Source: Clostridiaceae bacterium
Lineage (GTDB): Bacteria; Bacillota; Clostridia; Acetivibrionales; DTU013
Assembly: GCA_012799845.1 (NCBI GenBank)
Contig: JAAZKL010000164.1
Span: 1 to 24,260 of the forward strand
Reading direction: 5' to 3'
DNA length: 24,260 bases
Shown here: positions 7,156 to 17,958 of the stretch, in pieces
How the letters are laid out: every line of letters begins with the position of its first letter
Position numbering within the stretch: position 1 is the first letter of the stretch
Made by a program: the position numbers and the translations under genes
Notes under the pieces: model-generated
Databases searched by the model: none
Told to the model about the DNA's origin: nothing
Seen by the model: only the letters and a program-made list of their open reading frames with translations

Positions 7156-10100
7156 ATGAGTTTTATTATTTCAGTACATTTTAAAAACAGTTTTTATGAA
7201 ATTTTTACACCAGGCATAAACAATAGAAAAATTTCCATAGAAATTCCTTCAGACATATCCGGGTTCGCATCCGATTTTCCGCTCTCTTTCGAGGTCTGGA
7301 ACAACAACTGGAGCATATTGGAGAATGAAGCCGTCGTGTTCCTGAAAGGCAACGATTCAAAGAAAACCGTTCCTCTTGAGTCGGGCCTGACGATAAGCTG
7401 CGAACTCCGCCCGACACGTGAGAGATTCTCCCTCATAGTCGAAAAAAGTTATAAAGGATACTCGGATTTCGACAAATACGTATTGAAACAGGGGAAGATC
7501 ACTATAGGCAGCGCTGACGGGAATATGGTCCGGTACAACACCCGCAATCTTGTTTCCGGACATCATGCGGTCCTGGATGTAGGTCCGGACGGCATCTGTA
7601 CGCTTACCGACTCCAGCCGGAACGGCACGTTCGTAAACGGGAAAAGGATATCGGGAAGCTGCAGGCTGAACTACGGTGATGTGGTCTACATAATCGGACT
7701 GAAACTGATCTGTCTGGGGAACGTTATCGCGGTCAACCGTCCATTCGAGCCAGTCAGGCTGACAGGACTGGAATCGTTCGTGCGGGATGCGGAAAGCGGA
7801 CCTCAGCCGGATGCTGATGCCGATGACGGGTATTATCAGCGTTCTCCCCGCCAGATCGAGCCCCTGGACGATGAGACGATCGAGATAGAGGCGCCGCCGA
7901 ACCCGGCCAGGAGCCGCAGGCAGCCGCTGATGTTCACCGTTGGACCGTCCCTGACGATGGTCATCCCAATGGCGGCCGGCGTGCTGTTCACCATATGGAG
8001 CCAGCAGCAATCAAACAGCGGAATGGCCAGCCCGTTTATGTTCATGGGCATCGTAACTTCCGTTACAGCAGCTGTCATAGGAGTATTCTGGGCGCTGACA
8101 AATTACAGGTACAACATGAAGATGGAGCGCGAAGATGAGGCGCGGCGCCGTGACATGTACGGCAAATACCTGGAAAAGATCCGCCGGCTGCTGATTCGTA
8201 AGCACATGTTCAATAAAGAAGTGCTTGATAGGAAATATCCTGAAACGAGAGAGTGCCTGCGCTTTGTTATGGAAAAGAGCCGAAGAGTGTGGGAACGCAA
8301 TGTCAATCATCCTGATTTCCTGACTGTCCGGCTGGGACAGGGACAGATGCCTTCTCCCAATATCATCAGTATTCCTAAGGAAAGGTTCTCTCTCGTGGAC
8401 GACAACCTTGCAGAAGAACCGGCCAACATTAAAAATGAATACGATATACTGAAGGACGTTCCCGTATGCATTTCTCTGACCGAACACAACCTGGTCGGTG
8501 TGATCGGCGAACCGGCTGCAGTATACGGGTATATTCCACAGATCATGGCTGCTCAGATCGCGACCTGCCATTCATATACGGATGTACGCATGGCCTTCAT
8601 CTATAACGAAAAGCACGCCCGCAGCTTTGAATTCGCCAAATGGCTGCCTCACACGTGGAACGAGGACGGCAGTTTCCGCATGATAGCGTGCGACAAAAAC
8701 GGGGTAGGCGAACTGTTCTACAACCTGTCCTCCATGCTGAGGACCCGGCTTGAGGAAAAGGAGGATCCCTCGGAAGCTGTGCGTTCTCTTCCTCACTATG
8801 TTATATTTATCGCGGATCCTTCACTGGTCGAAAATGAGGCTGTCATGAAATATATATCCGCACCGACGGCACAGATGGGAATTACGACAGTACTGCTTTA
8901 TGAACAGATCGACAGGCTGCCGAACAACTGCACCGTGATCATCCAGAGCGATGAGGATTACCGCGGATATTACAGCCTGGACAGCAGTTTTGACGGTTTC
9001 AGCAATGTCATGTTCGATGGCGTGTCCATCGAAGAGCTTGAGGAATACGCCAGGGAAATGTCGAGCATCCGTGTGCGTGAGACTCAGTCCGCGGGCGCCA
9101 TACCGCAGATGCTCACTTTTCTTGATATGTACAAAACTTCGGTGGTCACTGACATCGATATTGAAAGGCGCTGGCTGGAGAACCGCACATATGAGAGCAT
9201 GAGAGCCATGATCGGCTACCGCAGCGCCAATTCTCCGCTGTATCTCGACATACACGAAAAATATCACGGCCCGCACGGCCTTGTCGCCGGCACCACCGGT
9301 TCGGGCAAGTCCGAGACGCTTCAGACCTACATACTGTCGATGGCGCTCAGCTACCATCCTTATGAGGTCTCCTTCATACTGATCGACTATAAGGGCGGCG
9401 GCATGGCAGGGAGCTTTGAGAAGCTGCCTCACGTCGCGGGCATCATCACGAACCTTGGAGGCAACCAGACGAACCGGGCGCTCGCTTCCATCAACAGCGA
9501 AATCAAGCGGCGCCAGACTGTTTTCAACGAATACAAGCTGAAGCATATCGACGGCTATATCGAGCTTTTCCGTGCCGGGAAAGTGTCACAGCCAATGCCT
9601 CACTTACTTATAATCGCCGATGAATTCGCGGAACTGAAAAAGGAACAGCCGGAATTCGTACGTGAACTCGTCAGTGCGTCCCGTGTCGGGCGCAGCCTCG
9701 GAGTCCATCTGATACTGGCGACACAGAAACCTTCCGGCGTGGTGGACGAAGAGATCTGGGGCAACTCCAAATTCCGGCTGTGTCTGCGTGTCCAGGACAA
9801 GCAGGATTCCAACGAGATGATAAGGCGTCCTGACGCGGCGTACATAACAAATGCAGGACGCGGATACTTCCAGGTAGGCAATGACGAGATATTCGAGCAG
9901 TTCCAGTCAGGCTGGAGCGGTGCGAGATATGAGCCGGATATCCCGTACAGCGATGCCGGACAGAGCGACGCAAAAATGATCAACCTCTGGGGCAAGCCCT
10001 GTGTGGTCGGCAGCACGAAGAAGGTATCGAAGCAGGAAGACGGGAAAAAGACGACCCAACTTGAGGCAGTCGTGCAGCATATATGCAGCATTGCCGAGAG

Positions 10101-11808
10101 ACAGGGGATCAGACCTGTCGACAATATCTGGCTTCCGCCGCTGCCCAAAACGCTGTCGCTGCCGCATTTGCAGGAGTATGGAGATGTTGCCTGGAGAGAC
10201 GGCATCTGGCGGGCACCTTCCGGAGAACTGGATCCTGTTGTCGGCCTGATCGATGATCCTGTTAACCAACGCCAGGCAGCACTGTCCGTCAACCTGCTCA
10301 TGGAGGGGCACCTGCTTGTGACAGGTTCGGGTTCGGGAGGAAAGACGACTTTCCTGCAAACGCTTTTATATTCACTTGTCACGACATATTCGCCCAAACA
10401 GCTCAACATATACATAGCCGACTTCGGAAGCCGGACGATGGGAGTATTCTCCTCGCTGCCGCATGTAGGCGGCGTCGTGTATGACAGCGAGACCGACAAG
10501 GCGGACAAGCTGGTCGCGATGCTTCTGAAGGAACTGAGCCGGCGCAGGCATATGTTCTCGGAAAAAGGAATCGGCTCCGTAAGAGAATATGTCCGCCTCT
10601 ATGACGATGTGCCGTTCATAGTTTTTGCCATCGACAACTATGCCGCGTGGAATGAAAGCTGTCCAAAGCAGGAGGACAATCTCATCCTGCTGTCGCGTGA
10701 AGCTGCAAGCTACGGCATATACCTGGTCATCACCTGCTCCAACTCAGGGGACATCCGGGGCAGGATCCGGCAAAACATCAGTTACGGCATCGGCCTGCAG
10801 CTTGCTGACCGGTTTGAGTACGAAGAAGCCATAGGCATGAAGACGGAAATCGTTGCTGAGGACCATACTCCGGGGCGCGGGCTCGTTTGCTGCCCGAAGC
10901 CACTTGAGTTCCAGACAGCGCTGTGCATGGACGTCAACGACCCGGTCACCCTCAATATGAAGCTGAAGGAACAGTTCGAGCAAATGGCGGCCGCATGGAG
11001 TGGAGAGGCAGCTACGGTCATACCGCAGGTGCCGTCCGACCTGTCCCTGGACAATCTCCTGTCGCTGCCCGAGTTCAATGAGGCTGTAAGTTCGCACAGG
11101 TACATCCCGTTCGGGTATGAGCTGTCAATGGCGCAGATTTCAAGCGTCGATCTGGCGAGGACCTTCTGCTATACCATAAGCGGCACGTCGAGAAGCGGAA
11201 AAACCAATCTGCTCAAGGTATACATGAGACTGGCTAAAACGCGGGACGGCAAGATATATGTGTTTGACGGCCCTAACCGCGAACTGGAAGCATATTCACG
11301 CGAAATAAGTGCAGACGGCTACATGACGAAATCCGACGAACTGTTCGATTACATGCAGACGGTCATGGTCCCGGAATTTGCGCGCAGGAACAGGGCAAAA
11401 GCTGAATTTGTAAGGAGCGGGAGCAGGAACGTTGATGAGTATATCGCCTCCGAACAGAAAATCTTCCTGTTCATAAATGACATGAGCGCGTTCTGCGAGG
11501 CGGTTTACGAAAGTGAACGCGATATGAAAGGCTTTATGGAGCAAATGATCGTCCGGGGCGACAATCATATGATCTACCTGTTTGCGTGTGTATCAGTGGC
11601 TGATATGACCGGAGAATACAATTCCAAACGCCTGATGCGCGGATTTGTGGGCTGGAAGGAAGGCATTCACCTGGGAGGCAGGCTGGAAGACCAGAAAGTG
11701 TTCGACTTCGATGTGCCGATACTGCAACGCGGGAAAAAGCTGCCTGCCGGCTATGGGCATATATCTGCTGACGGAGCAACATTGCGTGTCGTTACAGCTA
11801 TTGCATAA
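7156..11808 (+). CDS. essC: Type VII secretion FtsK/SpoIIIE ATPase, EssC/YukB type (N-terminal FHA region, two TM helices, three P-loop domains)
   Basis: FHA motif (ITIGS...VSGHHA...SRNGTFVNG). Two hydrophobic helices (PSLTMVIPMAAGVLF; FMFMGIVTSVTAAVIGVFW). Walker A motifs GTTGSGKS, GSGSGGKT, GTSRSGKT. HGPHGLVAG, IDYKGG, IIADEFAEL and LILATQKP motifs. Adjacent EsaB and WXG100 genes. Confidence 0.95.
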   Translation: MSFIISVHFKNSFYEIFTPGINNRKISIEIPSDISGFASDFPLSFEVWNNNWSILENEAVVFLKGNDSKKTVPLESGLTISCELRPTRERFSLIVEKSYKGYSDFDKYVLKQGKITIGSADGNMVRYNTRNLVSGHHAVLDVGPDGICTLTDSSRNGTFVNGKRISGSCRLNYGDVVYIIGLKLICLGNVIAVNRPFEPVRLTGLESFVRDAESGPQPDADADDGYYQRSPRQIEPLDDETIEIEAPPNPARSRRQPLMFTVGPSLTMVIPMAAGVLFTIWSQQQSNSGMASPFMFMGIVTSVTAAVIGVFWALTNYRYNMKMEREDEARRRDMYGKYLEKIRRLLIRKHMFNKEVLDRKYPETRECLRFVMEKSRRVWERNVNHPDFLTVRLGQGQMPSPNIISIPKERFSLVDDNLAEEPANIKNEYDILKDVPVCISLTEHNLVGVIGEPAAVYGYIPQIMAAQIATCHSYTDVRMAFIYNEKHARSFEFAKWLPHTWNEDGSFRMIACDKNGVGELFYNLSSMLRTRLEEKEDPSEAVRSLPHYVIFIADPSLVENEAVMKYISAPTAQMGITTVLLYEQIDRLPNNCTVIIQSDEDYRGYYSLDSSFDGFSNVMFDGVSIEELEEYAREMSSIRVRETQSAGAIPQMLTFLDMYKTSVVTDIDIERRWLENRTYESMRAMIGYRSANSPLYLDIHEKYHGPHGLVAGTTGSGKSETLQTYILSMALSYHPYEVSFILIDYKGGGMAGSFEKLPHVAGIITNLGGNQTNRALASINSEIKRRQTVFNEYKLKHIDGYIELFRAGKVSQPMPHLLIIADEFAELKKEQPEFVRELVSASRVGRSLGVHLILATQKPSGVVDEEIWGNSKFRLCLRVQDKQDSNEMIRRPDAAYITNAGRGYFQVGNDEIFEQFQSGWSGARYEPDIPYSDAGQSDAKMINLWGKPCVVGSTKKVSKQEDGKKTTQLEAVVQHICSIAERQGIRPVDNIWLPPLPKTLSLPHLQEYGDVAWRDGIWRAPSGELDPVVGLIDDPVNQRQAALSVNLLMEGHLLVTGSGSGGKTTFLQTLLYSLVTTYSPKQLNIYIADFGSRTMGVFSSLPHVGGVVYDSETDKADKLVAMLLKELSRRRHMFSEKGIGSVREYVRLYDDVPFIVFAIDNYAAWNESCPKQEDNLILLSREAASYGIYLVITCSNSGDIRGRIRQNISYGIGLQLADRFEYEEAIGMKTEIVAEDHTPGRGLVCCPKPLEFQTALCMDVNDPVTLNMKLKEQFEQMAAAWSGEAATVIPQVPSDLSLDNLLSLPEFNEAVSSHRYIPFGYELSMAQISSVDLARTFCYTISGTSRSGKTNLLKVYMRLAKTRDGKIYVFDGPNRELEAYSREISADGYMTKSDELFDYMQTVMVPEFARRNRAKAEFVRSGSRNVDEYIASEQKIFLFINDMSAFCEAVYESERDMKGFMEQMIVRGDNHMIYLFACVSVADMTGEYNSKRLMRGFVGWKEGIHLGGRLEDQKVFDFDVPILQRGKKLPAGYGHISADGATLRVVTAIA

Positions 11809-11861: not shown

Positions 11862-12599
11862 ATGCTAAGCATAATCGTGTTGGACACAATGCATGACGAA
11901 GAACCCAATATATCGGATATACTTGAGGAGGCGTATTCAAAACGCGACCTGCCTGTCAAACGGCTTGCCGTTTTCAGGGAACCTGCGCCCCTGTTTGGAT
12001 TTGCGGAGGAGCAGTCGGACAGGTTCAATGTTTTCATAGCATCATTTTCCTGGCTCCGGGATGAGTACATGGAACTGGCGCAAAATCTCAGGAGGCGCAG
12101 GAAAAACCTGTTTATAGTATTCGTGGTCGGCAGGAATGTGGACATATCATGCTGCGTGCGGCCGTCAGTGAGGCCCTCCGGCATACTGTTCATCCCCCTG
12201 GAGAAGCAGCGGATCTATCAAACGCTCAGCGAGATCTACGTTGAACTGCTGAGATCGGCCGAACGCGGGGAACAGCCTGTGTTCACCATCAGGTGCGGCG
12301 GCGAATACTACACCATCGATACTGAAGATATATTCTTCTTTGAGGCGCAGGGCAAAAAAATCGCTGCCAAAACACGCAGCCAGGAGATCGCTTTTTATTC
12401 GAACTTCGAAGCTGTGCTGGAGCAGCTTCCCGAATGGTTTGTGAGGTGCCATAAGGGGTTTGTGGTGAATACGAAGCAGATCGTCCAGGCAAGTTTTACT
12501 GAAATGACGCTGACATTGAAGGACAGGTCGGTGGTCCCGATATCGCGGACATACCGTGACGAGATCAGGACGATCGTCGAGTCGAAAGGGGCTGTATGA
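11862..12599 (+). CDS. LytTR-family DNA-binding regulator with atypical (pseudo-)receiver domain
   Basis: The C-terminal LytTR signature is IFFFEAQGKK...FVRCHKGFVVN...VPISRTY. The N-terminal about 120 aa has receiver-like spacing but lacks the phospho-Asp (FIASF), Thr/Ser (VFVVG) and Lys-Pro (LFIP) residues. Confidence 0.85.
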   Translation: MLSIIVLDTMHDEEPNISDILEEAYSKRDLPVKRLAVFREPAPLFGFAEEQSDRFNVFIASFSWLRDEYMELAQNLRRRRKNLFIVFVVGRNVDISCCVRPSVRPSGILFIPLEKQRIYQTLSEIYVELLRSAERGEQPVFTIRCGGEYYTIDTEDIFFFEAQGKKIAAKTRSQEIAFYSNFEAVLEQLPEWFVRCHKGFVVNTKQIVQASFTEMTLTLKDRSVVPISRTYRDEIRTIVESKGAV

Positions 12600-13090
12600 T
12601 GGAGGGACTGAAAGCATCATTCATACTTACAAGGCCTGAAATGCTCTTCCTGCTGAACAGTGCTGCCGGCACTACTCCCTCTGGTCCGATGGAGCATTTA
12701 CTGAGCAAGTGCTTCTCCAGCGCAACAGTGTCGGAGGAAACTGTCGGAGGGCTCGCGGACAAGGGACTGATCACGAAAACACCGGATAAGGTCTCGCTGG
12801 AGCCTGTGATCGGGCTGCTGGCGCGTTCTGCGATGACAGCCGGGAAGCTGTGGATCGTCAACGAAGGCGCCGAAGATAAGATGATGATACTGAGATCCGA
12901 TGAAATGTACCTGCACATAAAGAGATATCCGCTGATCGCTGACTCATGGCGCATCGCGCCGTACAGGACAGCGTCCGGGCTGCATGACGAGTTCGGGGGC
13001 ATCGCTGTCAGGAATGTAAGGATCATTGGTCAGCAGGGTGAAGAAGCTTTTATTGAATCACCGAACGATTTTGCATGGCTGGAGGTTTGA
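12596..13090 (+). CDS. Hypothetical protein in the T7SS operon, possibly EspG/EsaE-like chaperone
   Basis: ATGA overlap with the LytTR stop, followed closely by esaB. The N-terminal pattern LTRPEMLFLL...GLADKGLI...LEPVIGLLAR resembles EspG-family N-termini by eye only. Confidence 0.6.
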   Translation: MMEGLKASFILTRPEMLFLLNSAAGTTPSGPMEHLLSKCFSSATVSEETVGGLADKGLITKTPDKVSLEPVIGLLARSAMTAGKLWIVNEGAEDKMMILRSDEMYLHIKRYPLIADSWRIAPYRTASGLHDEFGGIAVRNVRIIGQQGEEAFIESPNDFAWLEV

Positions 13091-13095
13091 TTTGA

Positions 13096-13350
13096 ATGGC
13101 AAAAATCTATATCGATGTGAGCACGCCGGGTAACGGCAAGGTATATGAGTTCCGTCTCGACAACTCCATGACGGTCGGCCAGGTCAAGGCCAGGATGATC
13201 GAGGAAATAACCGAATTCGAGAATGGGAACATTACTCTCGATCCTGAAAAGATCATACTCTGCAACCAGGATACCCGGACAATGCTGCCGGAATCCCAGA
13301 CACTGAGGCAGTCGGGAGTCAGGAGCGGGCACAGGCTGCTGCTTGTGTGA
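13096..13350 (+). CDS. esaB: EsaB/YukD-family ubiquitin-like T7SS protein
   Basis: 84 aa with a beta-grasp pattern (IYIDVS...VYEFRLDNSMTVGQVK...TLRQSGVRSGHRLLLV), RBS GGAGG, located in the essC operon. Confidence 0.85.
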   Translation: MAKIYIDVSTPGNGKVYEFRLDNSMTVGQVKARMIEEITEFENGNITLDPEKIILCNQDTRTMLPESQTLRQSGVRSGHRLLLV

Positions 13351-13484: not shown

Positions 13485-13515
13485 ATATACAGAAAGCAAA
13501 CGGAGGTGACAGGCC

Positions 13516-13827
13516 ATGCCGGATTTCAGGTCAACGGATGTGGACAGCAGACAGATCGAAAATACAGCCGCCAGTCTGGACGAAGACATTAAGGCGTTGT
13601 CATCTGTATGCACTTTCATCCGGAACGATGTGATGGCGAACCTGGACCCTTACTGGGAGGGACAGGCAAAGCAAAGTTTCGAGCAGCGGTTCACCCGGTT
13701 TGCAGAGGCCCTGGTAAAGCTCGTTGACGAATACAGGGTGCTCAACGACCTGCTGAAGAGAGCCGGTGATACGTATGGCAAGGCAGACGATTCGGTAAGG
13801 AACACAATTGCGAAGCTGCCAAGGTAG
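13516..13827 (+). CDS. WXG100 family protein 1
   Basis: 103 aa helical protein with central W-E-G and C-terminal YGKAD (YxxxD/E). RBS GGAGGTG. Confidence 0.9.
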   Translation: MPDFRSTDVDSRQIENTAASLDEDIKALSSVCTFIRNDVMANLDPYWEGQAKQSFEQRFTRFAEALVKLVDEYRVLNDLLKRAGDTYGKADDSVRNTIAKLPR

Positions 13828-13838
13828 GGGGTGTTGGT

Positions 13839-14222
13839 ATGGCCGGGAAAAAGAATATGAAAATGCCGGATCCTGCTGTGGGAGCTGCATTGATTACTTT
13901 GCGCCAGGATTTTATAAAATTTGACCCGGAAAAGATCATGGAGGTTTCGACCGGGCTTGAACAGCAGCACAAGAAATTCACCCAGGCTGCCGCAACGATA
14001 AAGAGGCGGGCTGAAAGCCTGATGGCAAGCTGGAAGAGCGACAGCGCCGATTTATACATGAAGAAGATCGGGGAACTGGATGCACAGAGCAATGAAATTG
14101 CCGGTGAATTGCTCTCATTAAGCCAGGACCTGGCCAAAGCATCCGGGATCTACAAGACCGGCGAATCGGAAGCGAAGAAGAAAGCAGAAGCGTTGCCTAC
14201 TGAAGGCGTGTTTCTCGTATAG
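13839..14222 (+). CDS. WXG100-like protein 2 (WKS variant)
   Basis: IKFDPEKI...SWKSDSA...YKTGE...LPTEGVF. Paralogous to 15033-15353. The start codon is uncertain (13839 or 13857). Confidence 0.85.
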   Translation: MAGKKNMKMPDPAVGAALITLRQDFIKFDPEKIMEVSTGLEQQHKKFTQAAATIKRRAESLMASWKSDSADLYMKKIGELDAQSNEIAGELLSLSQDLAKASGIYKTGESEAKKKAEALPTEGVFLV

Positions 14223-14243
14223 TGAGGGACGGTGAGTGCGAAT

Positions 14244-14642
14244 ATGGCGATAATGAATTTCAACTATAACCAGGCAATCAGGCAGGCGGACCAAATCGAT
14301 TCCGCGGCAGGCGAATTGCTGAACACGGCGAACAGGCAGCTCCAGACGACGCTGGAATCCGTTGCCGCCTGCTGGAATGGCGATGCCTCGGCGCAGTTCA
14401 TCAGCTACTGCAGGACTGTCCAGGAAGATATCCGAAGAGAGGCGGGAAAACTCCAGGACCTGGCCCGCCGGATAAGGCAGGTTGCCAGGATCATCAGGGA
14501 AGCTGAAGAAAGGGCAAGAGAACTTCAGCGGCAGAGGGAAGCCGCAGCCGCTGCAGCAGCTGCTGCCGCCGCAGAGCAAAAAGGGAACTTTTCATCGGGA
14601 GGCGGCAGCTTCAGCGGTGGCGGCGGCGGTGGCTCATTCTGA
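14244..14642 (+). CDS. WXG100 family protein 3 with poly-Ala and Gly-rich C-terminal extension
   Basis: Central W-N-G, tail A11-EQKGNFSSGGGSFSGGGGGGSF. ATG 14244 is preferred over GTG 14232 on RBS spacing (GGTGAG at 14231-14236). Confidence 0.85.
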   Translation: MAIMNFNYNQAIRQADQIDSAAGELLNTANRQLQTTLESVAACWNGDASAQFISYCRTVQEDIRREAGKLQDLARRIRQVARIIREAEERARELQRQREAAAAAAAAAAAEQKGNFSSGGGSFSGGGGGGSF

Positions 14643-14707
14643 CAGGAGTTTGATATCATCTCATATTTCATATATCAGAATCCATATTTCTTAAGGAGGG
14701 AATTTCA

Positions 14708-15010
14708 ATGGCAGGAACTGAAGTTTTAACCGGGCGATTGATCGATGTCGCCAAAAACCTTGAGGACATAATCGGACGTTACAATACGACTGTCAACAAG
14801 GTTTACCAGATCGGAGGAGAAATCGATGCAATGTGGGATGGTCCGGCCAGCAATAAATTCGTGTCCATCCTCGGCAACGACAGGGAACGCTTCAATGCTC
14901 TTGCGAAAATGCTCAATGCATATGTCGAGACGCTCCGCAGGGACGCAGCCATCTATGCGAAAGCTGAGAGCGACGCTCTCGATATCCTGAACACGAACAA
15001 AATCCGATAA
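14708..15010 (+). CDS. WXG100 family protein 4
   Basis: 100 aa with central W-D-G, C-terminal YAKAE and RBS AAGGAGG. Confidence 0.9.
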   Translation: MAGTEVLTGRLIDVAKNLEDIIGRYNTTVNKVYQIGGEIDAMWDGPASNKFVSILGNDRERFNALAKMLNAYVETLRRDAAIYAKAESDALDILNTNKIR

Positions 15011-15032
15011 TCTATGAAAGGAGTCGTACATA

Positions 15033-15353
15033 ATGGATATCATATTAAAAGTACAGCCTGATGTTCTTCTCTCCAAATCCGGAGAGCTATCCAACGAAAA
15101 GAACACCATCATCAGCCTCATGGACCAGGCAAAAAGCGAGATCAACTCCCTGACCGGCGTTTGGAAGAGCGAGGCTTCGGATGAATTCCAGGCCAGGTTC
15201 AAACAGGTATACGACGACATAGACAATATGCTCGCTATCGTTTCCGAGTATATCAGTGACCTCAACGAGGTCGCCAATGTCTATACCACAGCGGAAAAAG
15301 CTGCAAAGAGCGCAGCGGAAGGACTTCCGACCGACGGTGTTTTCAGAGTTTGA
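15033..15353 (+). CDS. WXG100-like protein 5 (WKS variant)
   Basis: ILKVQPDVL...VWKSEAS...YTTAE...LPTDGVF, with RBS AAAGGAG. Confidence 0.9.
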   Translation: MDIILKVQPDVLLSKSGELSNEKNTIISLMDQAKSEINSLTGVWKSEASDEFQARFKQVYDDIDNMLAIVSEYISDLNEVANVYTTAEKAAKSAAEGLPTDGVFRV

Positions 15354-15359
15354 ATTCAA

Positions 15360-15403
15360 GTATACCCGGTACATCCGGGAAACGCCGGATATGCCGGGTA
15401 TAC
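15360..15403 (+). other. Long near-perfect intergenic hairpin without U-tract
   Basis: GTATACCCGG-TAC-ATCCGG / loop GAAACG / CCGGAT-ATG-CCGGGTATAC: 19 paired positions with one mismatch and one G-U. Confidence 0.75.
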
Positions 15404-15420
15404 AGTAACCAAGGTGCATA

Positions 15421-15852
15421 ATGATGCAGTATATCAAGTTTAACTGTTATGATCTGGCGGCACAAAATGCCGAACTGCAAAACATTCACAACAGGATCCG
15501 GAGATTGTCCGACGAACTGGCAGGTGTTTTGAATGCGCTGGATCCCCAGATCAGGAGTTACGAAAATCTTCAGCAGCAATTACTGGCGGTCCGGAATGAG
15601 ACTGCTGAGACCAGTGTGCGCATTTTAAGGGCTTGCAGCGCGCTTGACCGGATAATAGACATTTATTACGCGGCAGAAAGCAAAGTAAAGCAATCGGCCG
15701 AGGAACTGCCGGCCAGCACTGTCGGAACATCGGGCCGCCCGGCCGGCAGCACGGTAAAGATAGAAACATCCTCGATAAGCAGGGGTGACCTGGTTTTGGA
15801 AGATTGGATCGCGGAACTTTTGTATAAGGAAGACAACAACAGGAAGGGGTGA
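15421..15852 (+). CDS. WXG100-like helical protein 6 (no WxG motif); probable effector-targeting partner
   Basis: Helical heptad pattern, YYAAE motif, Ser/Thr/Gly linker and C-terminal LVLEDWIAELLY segment. Its stop overlaps the next start (GTGA). Confidence 0.75.
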   Translation: MMQYIKFNCYDLAAQNAELQNIHNRIRRLSDELAGVLNALDPQIRSYENLQQQLLAVRNETAETSVRILRACSALDRIIDIYYAAESKVKQSAEELPASTVGTSGRPAGSTVKIETSSISRGDLVLEDWIAELLYKEDNNRKG

Positions 15853-17132
15853 GCGTTGTGGCCAGGTATTCTATAAAATACAATGAACTGAAGAATCACG
15901 CAGTGGCATTGCAAAACATCGGCAAAACGCTTGCCTCGTTCGAGAACCGTTTATATTCGATAACTGCTTCCATGGACACAAGGGACAGCAGTATGGAATC
16001 ACTGAAGAGGCAAATACTCGCTGCCGGCAAAAACCTGCCGGTGATCAGCGGGAAATTGGCTTCGGCGGGCACAGCGGCGGAAAACATTTCGAATATATAC
16101 TCGTTGGCCGAAAAATACAGTTACAGCAGTTTCGAAAACTCAGTGCCGTGGGCTGCAGCCCAGGCATTACCGGCGGTTACCGGCCAGGCACAAAGTGTAT
16201 TTGATCCGGCAGCTTCCGGCGCAGGTTTTCCGGGAGTAGCGGCAGGTTCTGCGGGAGTAGCAGCAGCAGGTTCTGCATCACTGCTCGGGGAGCATCTTGA
16301 TGAGGACACCGCTGTCAACAGTATACTTAATCCGTTCGGCCTGTCCAAAGTCGAATATGGCAAATACGACGATAAGAAAAAGTTCAAGGAGATTGAACAG
16401 GAGGACAGGACATTCTGGCAGCAAGCCTATGAAAGGGATACCGGCCAAATGGTAATTCCTGACCTGGCACCGAAAAACGCCAGGAAACTGGCAACGATCT
16501 ACAGTGTAGGGACAGAAGCAAAGGCTGAGTACGCATGGCGTGAATACAAGGCTTCCGGCAAAACCGACTGGGCGGAAGGAAGCGCAGAATTAAAAGTCGC
16601 GGCAGCAGAGGCGCACGCTGAACTTTCTGCCGGCCTTTACGTGTTTGATAAAAACGGAAACAAGAGGTTTGCACCGGGGGTTGAGGCGGCAGTAGGCGCC
16701 AGTTTCTCTGCCCTGGCCGCGTCGGCGGAGGGAAAAATCGGCAATGACATGCTGGGTGCATTCGGCGAAGCCGAACTGGAAATAGCAAAAGCCGAAGCGG
16801 AAGGCAAGTTGAAGCTTTCGCTGTTCGACAAGGATGGCAAACTGGACATCGATGCACATGCGGAAGCCAGCCTTGAAGCAGTTGCTTTTGAAGTTGGAGG
16901 GAAGGCCGGAGTATCTGTTCTCGGTACAGATGTCGCGGTCAAAGGCGAGTTTAAGGTCGGTGTCGGAGTACATGCGGAAGTCGGATATGCTGACGGCGTA
17001 TTCAAGTTCGATGTTGGAGCTTCTTTGGGAATTGGCGCAAGTATCGGCTTCGAGGTCGATGTTTCCGGTACTGTCGACGCGATCTGCAGCAAAGCCGAGG
17101 CAGCATGGGATGCTATAAAAGGATGGTTCTGA
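15849..17132 (+). CDS. Candidate T7SS-secreted effector: N-terminal WXG100-like helical domain, Ala/Gly linker, Gly/Ala/Val-rich C-terminal domain
   Basis: The N-terminal about 95 aa is helical with YSLAE, followed by a low-complexity linker. The C-terminal half has alternating small/hydrophobic residues and an internal repeat ending FDK[ND]G. Followed by a small membrane protein and DUF4176. Confidence 0.75.
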   Translation: MSVVARYSIKYNELKNHAVALQNIGKTLASFENRLYSITASMDTRDSSMESLKRQILAAGKNLPVISGKLASAGTAAENISNIYSLAEKYSYSSFENSVPWAAAQALPAVTGQAQSVFDPAASGAGFPGVAAGSAGVAAAGSASLLGEHLDEDTAVNSILNPFGLSKVEYGKYDDKKKFKEIEQEDRTFWQQAYERDTGQMVIPDLAPKNARKLATIYSVGTEAKAEYAWREYKASGKTDWAEGSAELKVAAAEAHAELSAGLYVFDKNGNKRFAPGVEAAVGASFSALAASAEGKIGNDMLGAFGEAELEIAKAEAEGKLKLSLFDKDGKLDIDAHAEASLEAVAFEVGGKAGVSVLGTDVAVKGEFKVGVGVHAEVGYADGVFKFDVGASLGIGASIGFEVDVSGTVDAICSKAEAAWDAIKGWF

Positions 17133-17149: not shown

Positions 17150-17587
17150 ATGGAACAATTGGTAATTGGCGGAGTGTTTTTGTTCTCTGCGGTTATTTTC
17201 ATAGTAACGGCAGTCTTGTATTGGAGATCAGAAAAAAAGTTTCGCAGGGACTGTGTACGGTGTAAAGCCATTGTCGTTGACTATGTCGTGCAGGATTACT
17301 CACGGTGGCAGACTCCCAGGGTGGCGCTTGAGGGAGAAGGCCGGAGACTGGCTTACCGCTGCAAATCAAGACGCATGAATTCCGAGGTCTGTCCGAGGGG
17401 AACGCAGGTAACGGTAGATTATAGTGTCAAAAAGTTTCTGGGCATGGATTTTTATGACATCCGCATCGTCGACCCTCCCCAGTTTGCAGCAGAACCTGCA
17501 AAGACGGTCATTATAATGCTTGGCGTGATGACGCTTATTAGCCTTATCATATCGGCCGCGCTTATTGCAGCCGGAATTAGGGGATAG
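17150..17587 (+). CDS. Two-TM membrane protein (DUF3592-like); candidate immunity protein
   Basis: Hydrophobic helices at both ends (LVIGGVFLFSAVIFIVTAVLYW; VIIMLGVMTLISLIISAALI) flank a soluble beta-type segment (KAIVVDY...GTQVTVDY). RBS AGGAGG, 17 nt after the effector stop. Confidence 0.7.
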   Translation: MEQLVIGGVFLFSAVIFIVTAVLYWRSEKKFRRDCVRCKAIVVDYVVQDYSRWQTPRVALEGEGRRLAYRCKSRRMNSEVCPRGTQVTVDYSVKKFLGMDFYDIRIVDPPQFAAEPAKTVIIMLGVMTLISLIISAALIAAGIRG

Positions 17588-17640
17588 AGATATTTTGACC
17601 TGTATGAAATAGCTGACACTAATTTTAAGGAGGATTGACT

Positions 17641-17958
17641 ATGTTTAATGGTCTCTTACCGATCGGTTCAGTAGTCTTGCTGAAAAACAGCACCAAAAGG
17701 GTTATGATCATTGGCTTCTGCCAAAAAGAGATCAATGATAATGAAGAAGCGAAAATTTGGGATTATGCTGGCTGCCTGTATCCAGAAGGCTACCTGGGAC
17801 CCAATCAGACATTCCTGTTCAATGGCGACCAGATAGAACGCATTTTTGCCATTGGGTACCAGGATGAAGAGCAGTTTGAGTTCAAGAAAAAGGCCGACTC
17901 TGTGATCGAGCAACTGAGGAAGAAGTCTGCCGGTCAGCAGGAAGAACAGCCACAGTAA
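17641..17958 (+). CDS. DUF4176 family protein
   Basis: LLPIGSVVLLK...VMIIG...WDYAGCLYPEG...FLFNGDQIERIFAIGYQDEE is the recognisable DUF4176 pattern. AAGGAGG supports ATG 17641. Confidence 0.9.
   Translation: MFNGLLPIGSVVLLKNSTKRVMIIGFCQKEINDNEEAKIWDYAGCLYPEGYLGPNQTFLFNGDQIERIFAIGYQDEEQFEFKKKADSVIEQLRKKSAGQQEEQPQ

Follow-up and report, generated by a model that had tools for sequence, protein, structure and literature searches.

The window examined here is a stretch of 24,260 nucleotides (nt) from a Clostridiaceae bacterium (contig JAAZKL010000164.1 of assembly GCA_012799845.1). It holds a run of six small genes, g1 through g6, followed at once by the gene of a probable effector, g7. A first-pass annotation of this DNA located the six open reading frames (ORFs) correctly, all of them on the + strand, and took them for a duplicated three-gene module. 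I believe that another reading is probable: that the six genes form a fixed array of substrates and adaptors within a T7SSi-like type VII secretion (T7SS) locus, and that no triad was duplicated. The genes are listed below, with the label of the equivalent position in related loci in brackets and lengths in amino acids (aa).

13516-13827, + strand: g1 (p1), WXG100 protein, 103 aa, with W-E-G and YxxxD-x9-LP (Pfam WXG100 E 1.6e-11, 44.8 bits; TIGR03930 48 bits)
13839-14222, + strand: g2 (p2), WXG100-like protein, 127 aa, with W-K-S and a YxxxE-x9-LPTEGVFLV tail (23.6 bits, under the cut-off)
14232-14642, + strand: g3 (p3), WXG100 protein, 136 aa, with W-N-G and without YxxxD/E (Pfam WXG100 29.7 bits)
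14708-15010, + strand: g4 (p4), WXG100 protein, 100 aa, with W-D-G and YxxxE but without the LP tail (Pfam WXG100 30.2 bits)
15033-15353, + strand: g5 (p5), WXG100 protein, 106 aa, with W-K-S and a YxxxE-x9-LPTDGVFRV tail (Pfam E 2.7e-11, 44.0 bits)
15421-15852, + strand: g6 (p6), helical hairpin protein, 143 aa, without WxG, with YxxxE-x9-LP (no Pfam or NCBIfam family)
15849-17132, + strand: g7 (p7), probable effector, 427 aa, with an N-terminal hairpin of about 100 aa (about 15849-16150) and a variable C-terminal part (no Pfam family)

Membership of the WXG100 family was judged by PF06013 and TIGR03930, the curated Pfam cut-off being 27.3 bits. The cut-off is passed by g1, g3, g4 and g5. It is narrowly missed by g2, which is nonetheless a clear paralogue of g5, while g6 gives no WXG100 match and by profile is not a member. 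The array is therefore made of five WXG100 proteins and one hairpin protein that lacks WxG, in three tightly spaced units.

The first-pass annotation gave the order of the genes and the motifs of g1, g2, g4 and g5 (W-E-G, W-K-S, W-D-G and W-K-S) as the ORFs and their translations have them, and the tail LPT[E/D]GVF is indeed common to g2 and g5. What changes the picture is the comparison with orthologues, tallied position by position (p1 n=13, p2 n=18, p3 n=18, p4 n=21, p5 n=18, p6 n=14). The loop between the helices is W-x-G in every p1 (13/13) and every p3 (18/18), W-[DE]-G in every p4 (21/21) and W-x-S in 17 of the 18 p5 proteins. At p2 it is mostly W-Q-G or W-Q-S (W-x-G 10/18, W-Q-S 6/18, W-K-S 2/18). 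W-K-S is thus a minority state at p2, and what had been offered as a shared trait of g2 and g5 holds in the window but not for p2 at large, W-x-S being the rule only for p5. No p6 has W-x-G; 11 of 14 have a [D/E/N]-P-Q turn there, and in the window g6 has no W and turns at D-P-Q. The signal YxxxD/E-x9-LP occurs in all 14 p6 proteins, in 17/18 at both p2 and p5, in 7/13 at p1, and at neither p3 (0/18) nor p4 (0/21).

It was also thought that g3 and g6 form an extended class apart from the WxG proteins. The canonical W-N-G of g3 speaks otherwise: g3 belongs with the ordinary WXG100 proteins, to which it adds a tail. The string F-N-x6-Q-x-x-[Q/E]-[I/L] is present near the start of both, as was said, but it resembles the starts of other paralogues (K-F-D-P-E-K-I in g2, I-K-Y-N-E-L in g7). 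Both proteins are longer, as was also said, yet the extension of g6 is not simply of low complexity, consisting of a disordered linker and then a conserved EDW[LI]AEL[LV]Y helix. That of g3 is a run of eleven alanines followed by a Gly-rich tail (14541-14642) with a final F. Such Gly-rich tails are found in 12 of the 18 p3 C-termini listed, usually with W, F, R or K as the last residue, and are missing in some orthologues (L011, L016, L045). Within the Ala run, position 14575 is A in the window and C in all four RNA runs. The ORF of g3 opens at GTG 14232, but since the orthologues open M-A-I-M-N-F, the true start is probably ATG 14244, giving a protein of 132 aa. The strong ribosome-binding sites ascribed to g1 and g4 are there (GGAGG and AAGGAGG). 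Of the AT-rich gaps said to precede them, the one between g3 and g4 is as described (31% GC) but that between YukD and g1 is only mildly so (44%).

Rates of change differ greatly over the array. Mean identity between orthologues is 72% for p4, 69% for p5, 54% for p3, 48% for both p2 and p6, 41% for p1 and 34% for the N-terminal domain of the effector (p7N). The most conserved member, p4, has 46 invariant columns over seven orthologues and homologues in more than 130 clusters in metagenomes. By sequence match, the nearest solved structure to g4 is Geobacillus EsxA (3zbh, E 1e-4) and the nearest to g5 is Bacillus anthracis EsxB (4j41, E 2.4e-4). Because they evolve most slowly, g4 and g5 are the candidates for a core Esx pair.

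Related loci were collected from homologues of g6 and g4 on metagenomic contigs and contigs of metagenome-assembled genomes (MAGs), and the position of each gene was confirmed by classification with hidden Markov models. Their identity to the window runs from about 29% to about 82%. In every locus long enough to tell, about 17 in all, the order is p1 through p6, effector, DUF4176 gene, with a gene of the size of an immunity gene between the last two in some loci only. The block keeps together in the divergent locus L046, where it is detached from the EssC-LytTR-YukD order described below. A scan of species-representative genomes with the p4 profile gave one locus only, among those already known, and a p5 query of 37 genomes of the same family found distant matches only (25-28% identity, in 3).

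A shorter version of the array occurs in two genomes of the same genus and one of the same family. It runs s3, s4, s5, s6, effector, DUF4176, with three WXG100 genes (like p3, p4 and p5) and a p6-like gene of 170-192 aa, and has no counterpart of p1 or p2. No YukD was seen in the G005 short array between the genes on the regulator side and s3. The short array is likely to be the ancestral type of layout. The three are:

G005:C14 (L042:404-5158)
G012:C21 (L003)
G021:C37 (L002)

The spacing of the genes is informative in itself. From g1 through g7 the gaps in the window are 11, 9, 65, 22, 67 and -4 nt. In seven closer loci they are 9-18 nt for p1-p2 (6/7), 9-17 for p2-p3, 34-65 nt for p3-p4, 17-22 nt for p4-p5, 21-112 for p5-p6 and -4 to 59 nt for p6-p7. 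The gap between g5 and g6 contains, besides, a structure:

15360-15403, + strand: GC-rich stem-loop in the g5-g6 gap, minimum free energy -32.9 kcal/mol, z -5.85, with no U-tract after it

A hairpin of other sequence lies in the equivalent gap of L008 (z -4.2), L011 (z -6.9), L018 (z -3.4) and L015 (z -2.6), and none is found in the short p5-p6 gap of L013. Spacing and conserved hairpin together group the genes as (1,2,3), (4,5) and (6, effector). The stem-loop may be an element of mRNA processing or stability. A scan for promoters and terminators gave no excess over shuffled sequence and did not call it.

How the six proteins are related was approached by several routes. Shuffle z-scores were computed among the proteins of the window, and BLASTP was run on selected pairs; enlarged alignments were compared profile to profile with hhalign; best matches within a locus were scored over 11 complete loci; and maximum-likelihood trees were built by careful searches, one of 55 rows without outgroups and one of 70 rows with the short-array sequences as outgroups. 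Quick trees without outgroups were unstable, a constrained search scoring better than a free one, so the careful searches are those relied upon. Mirror-tree residuals over eight loci (p1-p2 0.57, p4-p5 0.46, p4-p7N 0.61, p3-p6 0.43, p6-p7N -0.02) were given no weight, as they come from 28 non-independent pairs and carry no significance test.

Of the six, g2 and g5 are clear paralogues, and theirs is the only firm duplication in the array. They give the highest shuffle score (z 16.9, BLASTP E 6e-9) and the strongest profile match (99.6%, E 1.3e-24), each of p2 and p5 picks the other as its best paralogue in all 11 complete loci, the divergent pair in L046 still aligns at E 1e-20, and the 70-row tree joins them at 98/94. 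The grouping of 2 with 5 put forward at first is thus confirmed. That clade excludes s5, which falls outside at 67/38, a weak value, and so the duplication came after the split from the lineage of the short arrays.

For the pairing of g1 with g4 the evidence points both ways. In the window the two are linked at z 5.6 and BLASTP E 5e-4, about what g1 and g5 give (z 5.2), and in L046 at E 3e-11, where p1 also scores 38 bits on the p4 model. In the 70-row tree (p4,s4) is found at 89/74 and p1 joins at 80/74, outside (p4,s4). An exclusive p1+p4 clade costs 2.05 units of log-likelihood (lnL; approximately unbiased, AU, test p 0.27 with outgroups). Duplication of g5 by itself has, on these comparisons, not quite an even chance of being what happened; duplication of the pair, g4-g5 giving rise to g1-g2, I hold more tentatively, as a serious possibility.

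The grouping of g3 with g6, on which the duplicated module had been staked, did not appear in phylogeny or in profiles. Here the shuffle score is 0.7, and BLASTP comes no lower than E 21 for the window's pair and fails to align that of L046. In the window g3 is matched to g5 (z 11.5, E 7e-6) and g4 (z 8.9), and g6 to g5 (z 8.3, E 2e-6). Over the several comparisons made, hhalign gave p3 against p6 1-4%, with 3.8% and E 0.011 from the enlarged alignments; the corresponding figure for p2 and p6 is 96.2%, E 2.3e-9. The best match of p6 within a locus was p7N in four of the 11 loci, p2 in three and p5 in three, and never p3. The 70-row tree places p3 with s3 at 98/92, and the short arrays also carry a p6-like gene. 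The lineages of p3 and p6 must then have split before short and long arrays did, while 2 and 5 were duplicated later, so that one duplication of a triad cannot have produced all three pairs. An exclusive p3+p6 clade costs 20.35 lnL (AU p 0.084) and is disfavoured by every measure, though on the AU test it escapes formal rejection.

The nearest relative of g6 appears to lie on its other side. The stop codon of g6 overlaps the start of g7 by 4 nt, and p6 directly precedes the effector in all loci, a small hairpin gene immediately upstream of its presumed client. Judged from alignments and trees, g6 is the closest relative, indeed a paralogue, of the N-terminal domain of g7: the two match at z 10.3 and BLASTP E 3e-7 (g7 residues 9-111), hhalign gives p6-p7N 97.6% and E 4.7e-12, and the trees find (p6,p7N) at 96/96 with 55 rows and {p6, p7N, s6, s7} at 91/93 with 70, the subclades being (s6,s7) at 97/99 and (p6,p7N) at 85/51. 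Within its own genome the g6 profile matches g7N, g2 and g5 only; in other genomes of the class it matches the N-termini of open frames of 365-1046 aa.

An AlphaFold2 model of g6 has helices at 9-44, 48-94 and 125-142, the hairpin 9-94 being at a predicted local distance difference test score (pLDDT) of 81-91 and followed by the disordered linker. The third helix carries the nearly invariant EDW[LI]AEL[LV]Y. Searches for known relatives returned little: coiled-coil noise from the g6 profile against PDB sequences, no Foldseek match of the model at E <=0.001 (WXG100 hairpins were mixed among generic ones), and no described Lap family at significance in Pfam or NCBIfam. The N-terminus of p7 aligns over 10 loci while total lengths range over 169-427 aa; g7 has no Pfam match at E <=1 beyond two chance-level rows, and no LXG domain.

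A model of g7(1-120) in complex with g6 reached an interaction prediction score from aligned errors (ipSAE) of 0.75, the best of 3 controls scoring 0.00. In the calibration of the tool, 58 of 80 solved complexes came up to this mark, as did 2 of 110 mismatched pairs. The runs share at least 82% of contacts, partner pLDDT is at least 66, and the predicted interface joins residues 4-78 of g6 to 10-80 of g7. Binding of g6 to the N-terminal domain of g7 is thereby supported, by model only. Against the notion that each heterodimer of the array has a third, extended partner of its own, g6 appears to be tied to the downstream effector and not to g4 and g5.

One relative has, at L008:13099-13980, a second effector with a p7-type N-domain, followed by a second DUF4176 gene and without a set of small genes of its own. 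In being shared like this, the N-domain resembles the constant head found in families of polymorphic toxins. The same locus has a seventh small gene (L008:8861-9229), which was copied from p4 recently (88% identity) and has acquired a Gly-rich tail like that of p3. Such tails must either move between members of the array or arise on them repeatedly.

The genes around the array show what kind of machine it serves:

7156-11808, + strand: EssC with an FHA domain (TIGR03928 EssC 1189 bits; FHA and FtsK domains)
11862-12599, + strand: LytTR regulator (LytTR E 4e-19)
12596-13090, + strand: 164-aa protein (no Pfam or NCBIfam family)
13096-13350, + strand: YukD/EsaB (YukD E 3.9e-8)
17150-17587, + strand: 145-aa protein, candidate immunity protein (no family)
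17635-17958, + strand: DUF4176 protein (DUF4176 E 4.7e-30), last gene of the conserved block

The order EssC, LytTR, 164-aa protein, YukD recurs in L008, L011, L013, L015, L016, L044 and L045, and an EssC with FHA, a LytTR regulator and YukD are present in all of the about 17 loci. The source genome (G000) is a MAG of 2.5 Mb, 91% complete; its five WXG100 matches are all in the window, and no match to YukC/EssB was found in it at that completeness. The window thus has the components of T7SSi: an EssC with FHA at its N-terminus, a regulator of LytR type inside the gene cluster, and a protein resembling ubiquitin. A survey (Garrett, Higginson and Palmer 2024) that knew T7SSi from Vallitalea alone could name no TsxA for it (PMC11217815). 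The likeness extends to particulars: there as here an FHA-EssC, a LytR/LytTR-type regulator (TsiN there), EsaB/YukD and WXG100 genes by candidate toxins go together, and EssA, EssB and EsaA are lacking (PMC11217815). The placement of WXG100 genes in Vallitalea is variable (PMC11217815), whereas here their order after YukD is fixed over about 17 loci and one pair (g4, g5) is far more conserved than the rest. The comparison with T7SSi rests on the set of components.

I propose that g4 and g5 form the core heterodimer of this system, of the EsxA/EsxB kind, in which g4 would give the WxG and g5 would supply the C-terminal export signal YxxxE-x9-LP...GVFRV. In mycobacteria, repeated duplication of EsxB-EsxA (CFP-10/ESAT-6) pairs is classical. 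Like those pairs (e.g. 3fav), g4 and g5 are adjacent WXG100 genes, one of them with a YxxxD/E signal and a C-terminal tail, and both match Esx structures by sequence. Unlike them, the WxG-type gene comes first here, the signal-bearing member is W-x-S with a YxxxD/E-x9-LP...GVF tail, and the heterodimer itself is putative. On this proposal g2 would be a faster-evolving duplicate of g5, and g1 perhaps a duplicate of g4, in which case g1-g2 would be a second secreted heterodimer; WxG/WxS heterodimers g1-g2 and g4-g5 are plausible candidates. The remaining WXG100 protein, g3, would be old and unduplicated, with its Gly-rich tail, perhaps a homodimer. Lastly, g6 and the N-terminal hairpin of g7 would form a four-helix bundle like that of WXG100 dimers, with the YxxxE-x9-LP and conserved C-terminal helix of g6 as the targeting signal of the effector, much as Lap proteins and the EsxBCD partners serve LXG and EsaD toxins. 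All the pairings, as well as the roles in secretion and signalling, are inferred, that of g6 with g7N from the complex model.

Taken jointly, these steps would make g4/g5 the missing TsxA pair of T7SSi-type machines, and the g6-type protein with the g7-type N-domain an undescribed, self-paralogous targeting module, in which the hairpin of a toxin was copied into a free partner that bears the signal (YxxxE-x9-LP and the EDWLAELLY helix), either independently in different lineages or with homogenisation by lineage, the clades concerned being (s6,s7) and (p6,p7N). That combination is speculative, and I think it somewhat unlikely to hold in full.

A number of observations weigh against the fixed array of substrates and adaptors as I have drawn it. 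The p3+p6 clade, as just said, survives the AU test at p 0.084, and the deep nodes of the trees rest on about 106 columns. The link between p1 and p4 is weak: within a locus, p1 finds its best match in p3 six times out of 11 and in p4 just once, and its profile is equally like those of p2, p3, p4 and p5 (95-96%, E 4e-9 to 3e-8). Conservation of g4 and g5 could stem from constraints other than a role in the core machine. Among the divergent loci L044-L046 the spacing pattern is not kept throughout. RNA-library contigs cross the g5-g6 hairpin in three of four runs, which means that it is no strict terminator. The complex model may owe its pass simply to the abundance of WXG100 heterodimers in the stock of solved structures, and close cousins of a true partner pass the same test, so that a preference of g6 for g7 over g2 or g5 does not follow from it.

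Could the triad be rescued? It would say that an ancestral set of WxG protein, WxS protein and extended partner was duplicated in tandem to give [g1,g2,g3] and [g4,g5,g6], each a heterodimer with a third partner or cargo. The order of motifs is just as this requires, 2+5 is firm, and AU tests reject neither 1+4 (p 0.52 without outgroups, 0.27 with them) nor p3+p6 (p 0.23 and 0.084); without outgroups, indeed, they reject nothing. The 55-row tree even sets p3 beside (p6,p7N), at 81/79, and the mirror-tree residual for p3-p6 (0.43) leans weakly the same way. But g3 and g6 resemble one another neither pairwise (E 21, and no alignment in L046) nor by profile (1-4%). Nowhere among the 11 loci is p6 nearest to p3, and with outgroups p3 goes to s3 (98/92) and p6 to p7N, s6 and s7 (91/93). 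In the short arrays, genes of types 3 and 6 already accompany a single 4/5 pair, which makes the splits unequal in age; a canonical WxG without YxxxD/E marks g3, and g6 is the reverse; the spacing puts g6 with g7, not with g4/g5; and L008 has seven small genes. I consider the duplicated triad highly improbable. The idea was an appealing one, but it is unsupported and is corrected here.

A second rival has the array grow one gene at a time, with no duplication of a module at all. By this account only g5 was duplicated, giving g2, while g1 is an independent and older WXG100 lineage, lost from the short arrays or never in them. The even-handed profile of p1, its preference for p3 over p4 (6/11 against 1/11) and its branching outside (p4,s4) all suit such an origin, and the extra p4 copy of L008 (88%) exhibits a single-gene duplication directly. 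The outgroup tree, in contrast, puts p1 with p4 and s4 at 80/74, L046 links p1 and p4 at E 3e-11 (and 38 bits on the p4 model), p1 and p2 are adjacent (9-18 nt) in the same order of WxG then WxS as p4 and p5, and the fast rate of p1 could have erased a specific signal. As a full history of the array, single-gene growth seems to me doubtful, if entirely conceivable. A further account does away with autonomous dimers of g1 through g5 and has all six proteins assemble on g7 as one pre-secretion complex, after the manner of EsxB/C/D-EsaD-EsaE-EsaG in Staphylococcus aureus or the seven-protein TelE assembly. Toxin complexes with many partners are documented (PMC10653861; bioRxiv 10.64898/2026.03.12.711312), the block of p1-p6, effector and DUF4176 stays together even away from EssC (L046), the upstream 164-aa protein occupies the position of a chaperone like EspG/EsaE, a likeness by position only, and the p4-p7N residual, 0.61, points weakly in this direction. 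The g7 N-domain, however, consists of just one hairpin (about 100 aa), and the modelled g6 covers residues 10-80 of it, leaving little surface for five more hairpins. Adaptors specific to a cargo would hardly keep an identity of about 70%, as p4 and p5 do, next to effectors whose C-terminal parts vary so widely (169-427 aa), and the second effector of L008 has the same N-domain without an extra set of small genes. One common complex is, I think, improbable.

The preferred reading also finds precedent among better-known systems, in which a T7SS toxin carries a helical targeting domain and small proteins of the WXG100-like type attach to that domain (PMC10653861; bioRxiv 10.1101/2023.07.21.550046). 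The T7SSb of S. aureus has small WXG100-like genes (EsxB/EsxC/EsxD) upstream of a toxin, EsaD, with a helical N-terminal transport domain, and an immunity gene besides (Yang et al. 2023, PMC10653861). That transport domain is of LXG type; the small proteins attach to it, and it takes three partners (PMC10653861). Unlike EsaD, g7 has an N-domain made of one hairpin, some 100 aa long and without Pfam LXG, and the only partner predicted for it is g6, a paralogue of that very domain. Another parallel is given by the LXG-Lap systems (TelA-LapA3-LapA4 of Streptococcus intermedius; Klein et al., bioRxiv 10.1101/2023.07.21.550046, 10.1101/2022.07.06.499029), which likewise place a WxG-less hairpin gene directly upstream of a polymorphic effector, and for which a composite helical secretion signal with the N-terminus of the effector has been proposed. 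There too the resemblance has limits, as g6 and g7 belong to no Pfam family and are predicted to form a bundle of two hairpins, not a tripartite elongated one. The array would then be a variant of known T7SS themes: a T7SSi-like system keeps a conserved set of WXG100 genes, in which one duplication is firm (of a gene, or perhaps of a pair) and the effector has a paralogous partner of its own. Its order, fixed and widely conserved in uncultured Bacillota of anaerobic digesters, points to g4/g5 as the candidate core pair, and separates that candidate from its faster-evolving duplicate and from the effector-specific partner g6.

DNA nearly identical to the window comes from metagenomes of anaerobic digesters, biogas plants, manure and sludge, in 11 studies. 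Six RNA runs from four metatranscriptome studies hold the stretch, and their contigs cover the array. The array has greater depth than the DNA upstream of it, and contigs start at 13506-13547, near the start of g1, in three runs. As contigs cannot prove transcription, or the ends or level of a transcript, depth and start points are no more than a weak hint.

Elsewhere in the window, a GGDEF-EAL protein appears to be divided over two overlapping ORFs, 1390-2229 (EAL profile positions 9-58) and 2226-2816 (positions 68-236), the division of the profile over 1390-2816 suggesting a frameshift or an error of assembly. Genes for sugar transporters of the ATP-binding cassette type lie upstream of EssC, and no kinase gene is present in the window. 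Four of the related loci are flanked by genes for Ser/Thr kinases (Pkinase with TPR or PASTA; L008:1-922, L016:7154-9343, L044:10741-13284 and L045:12026-14306), and the flank of L045 carries PP2C phosphatases as well.

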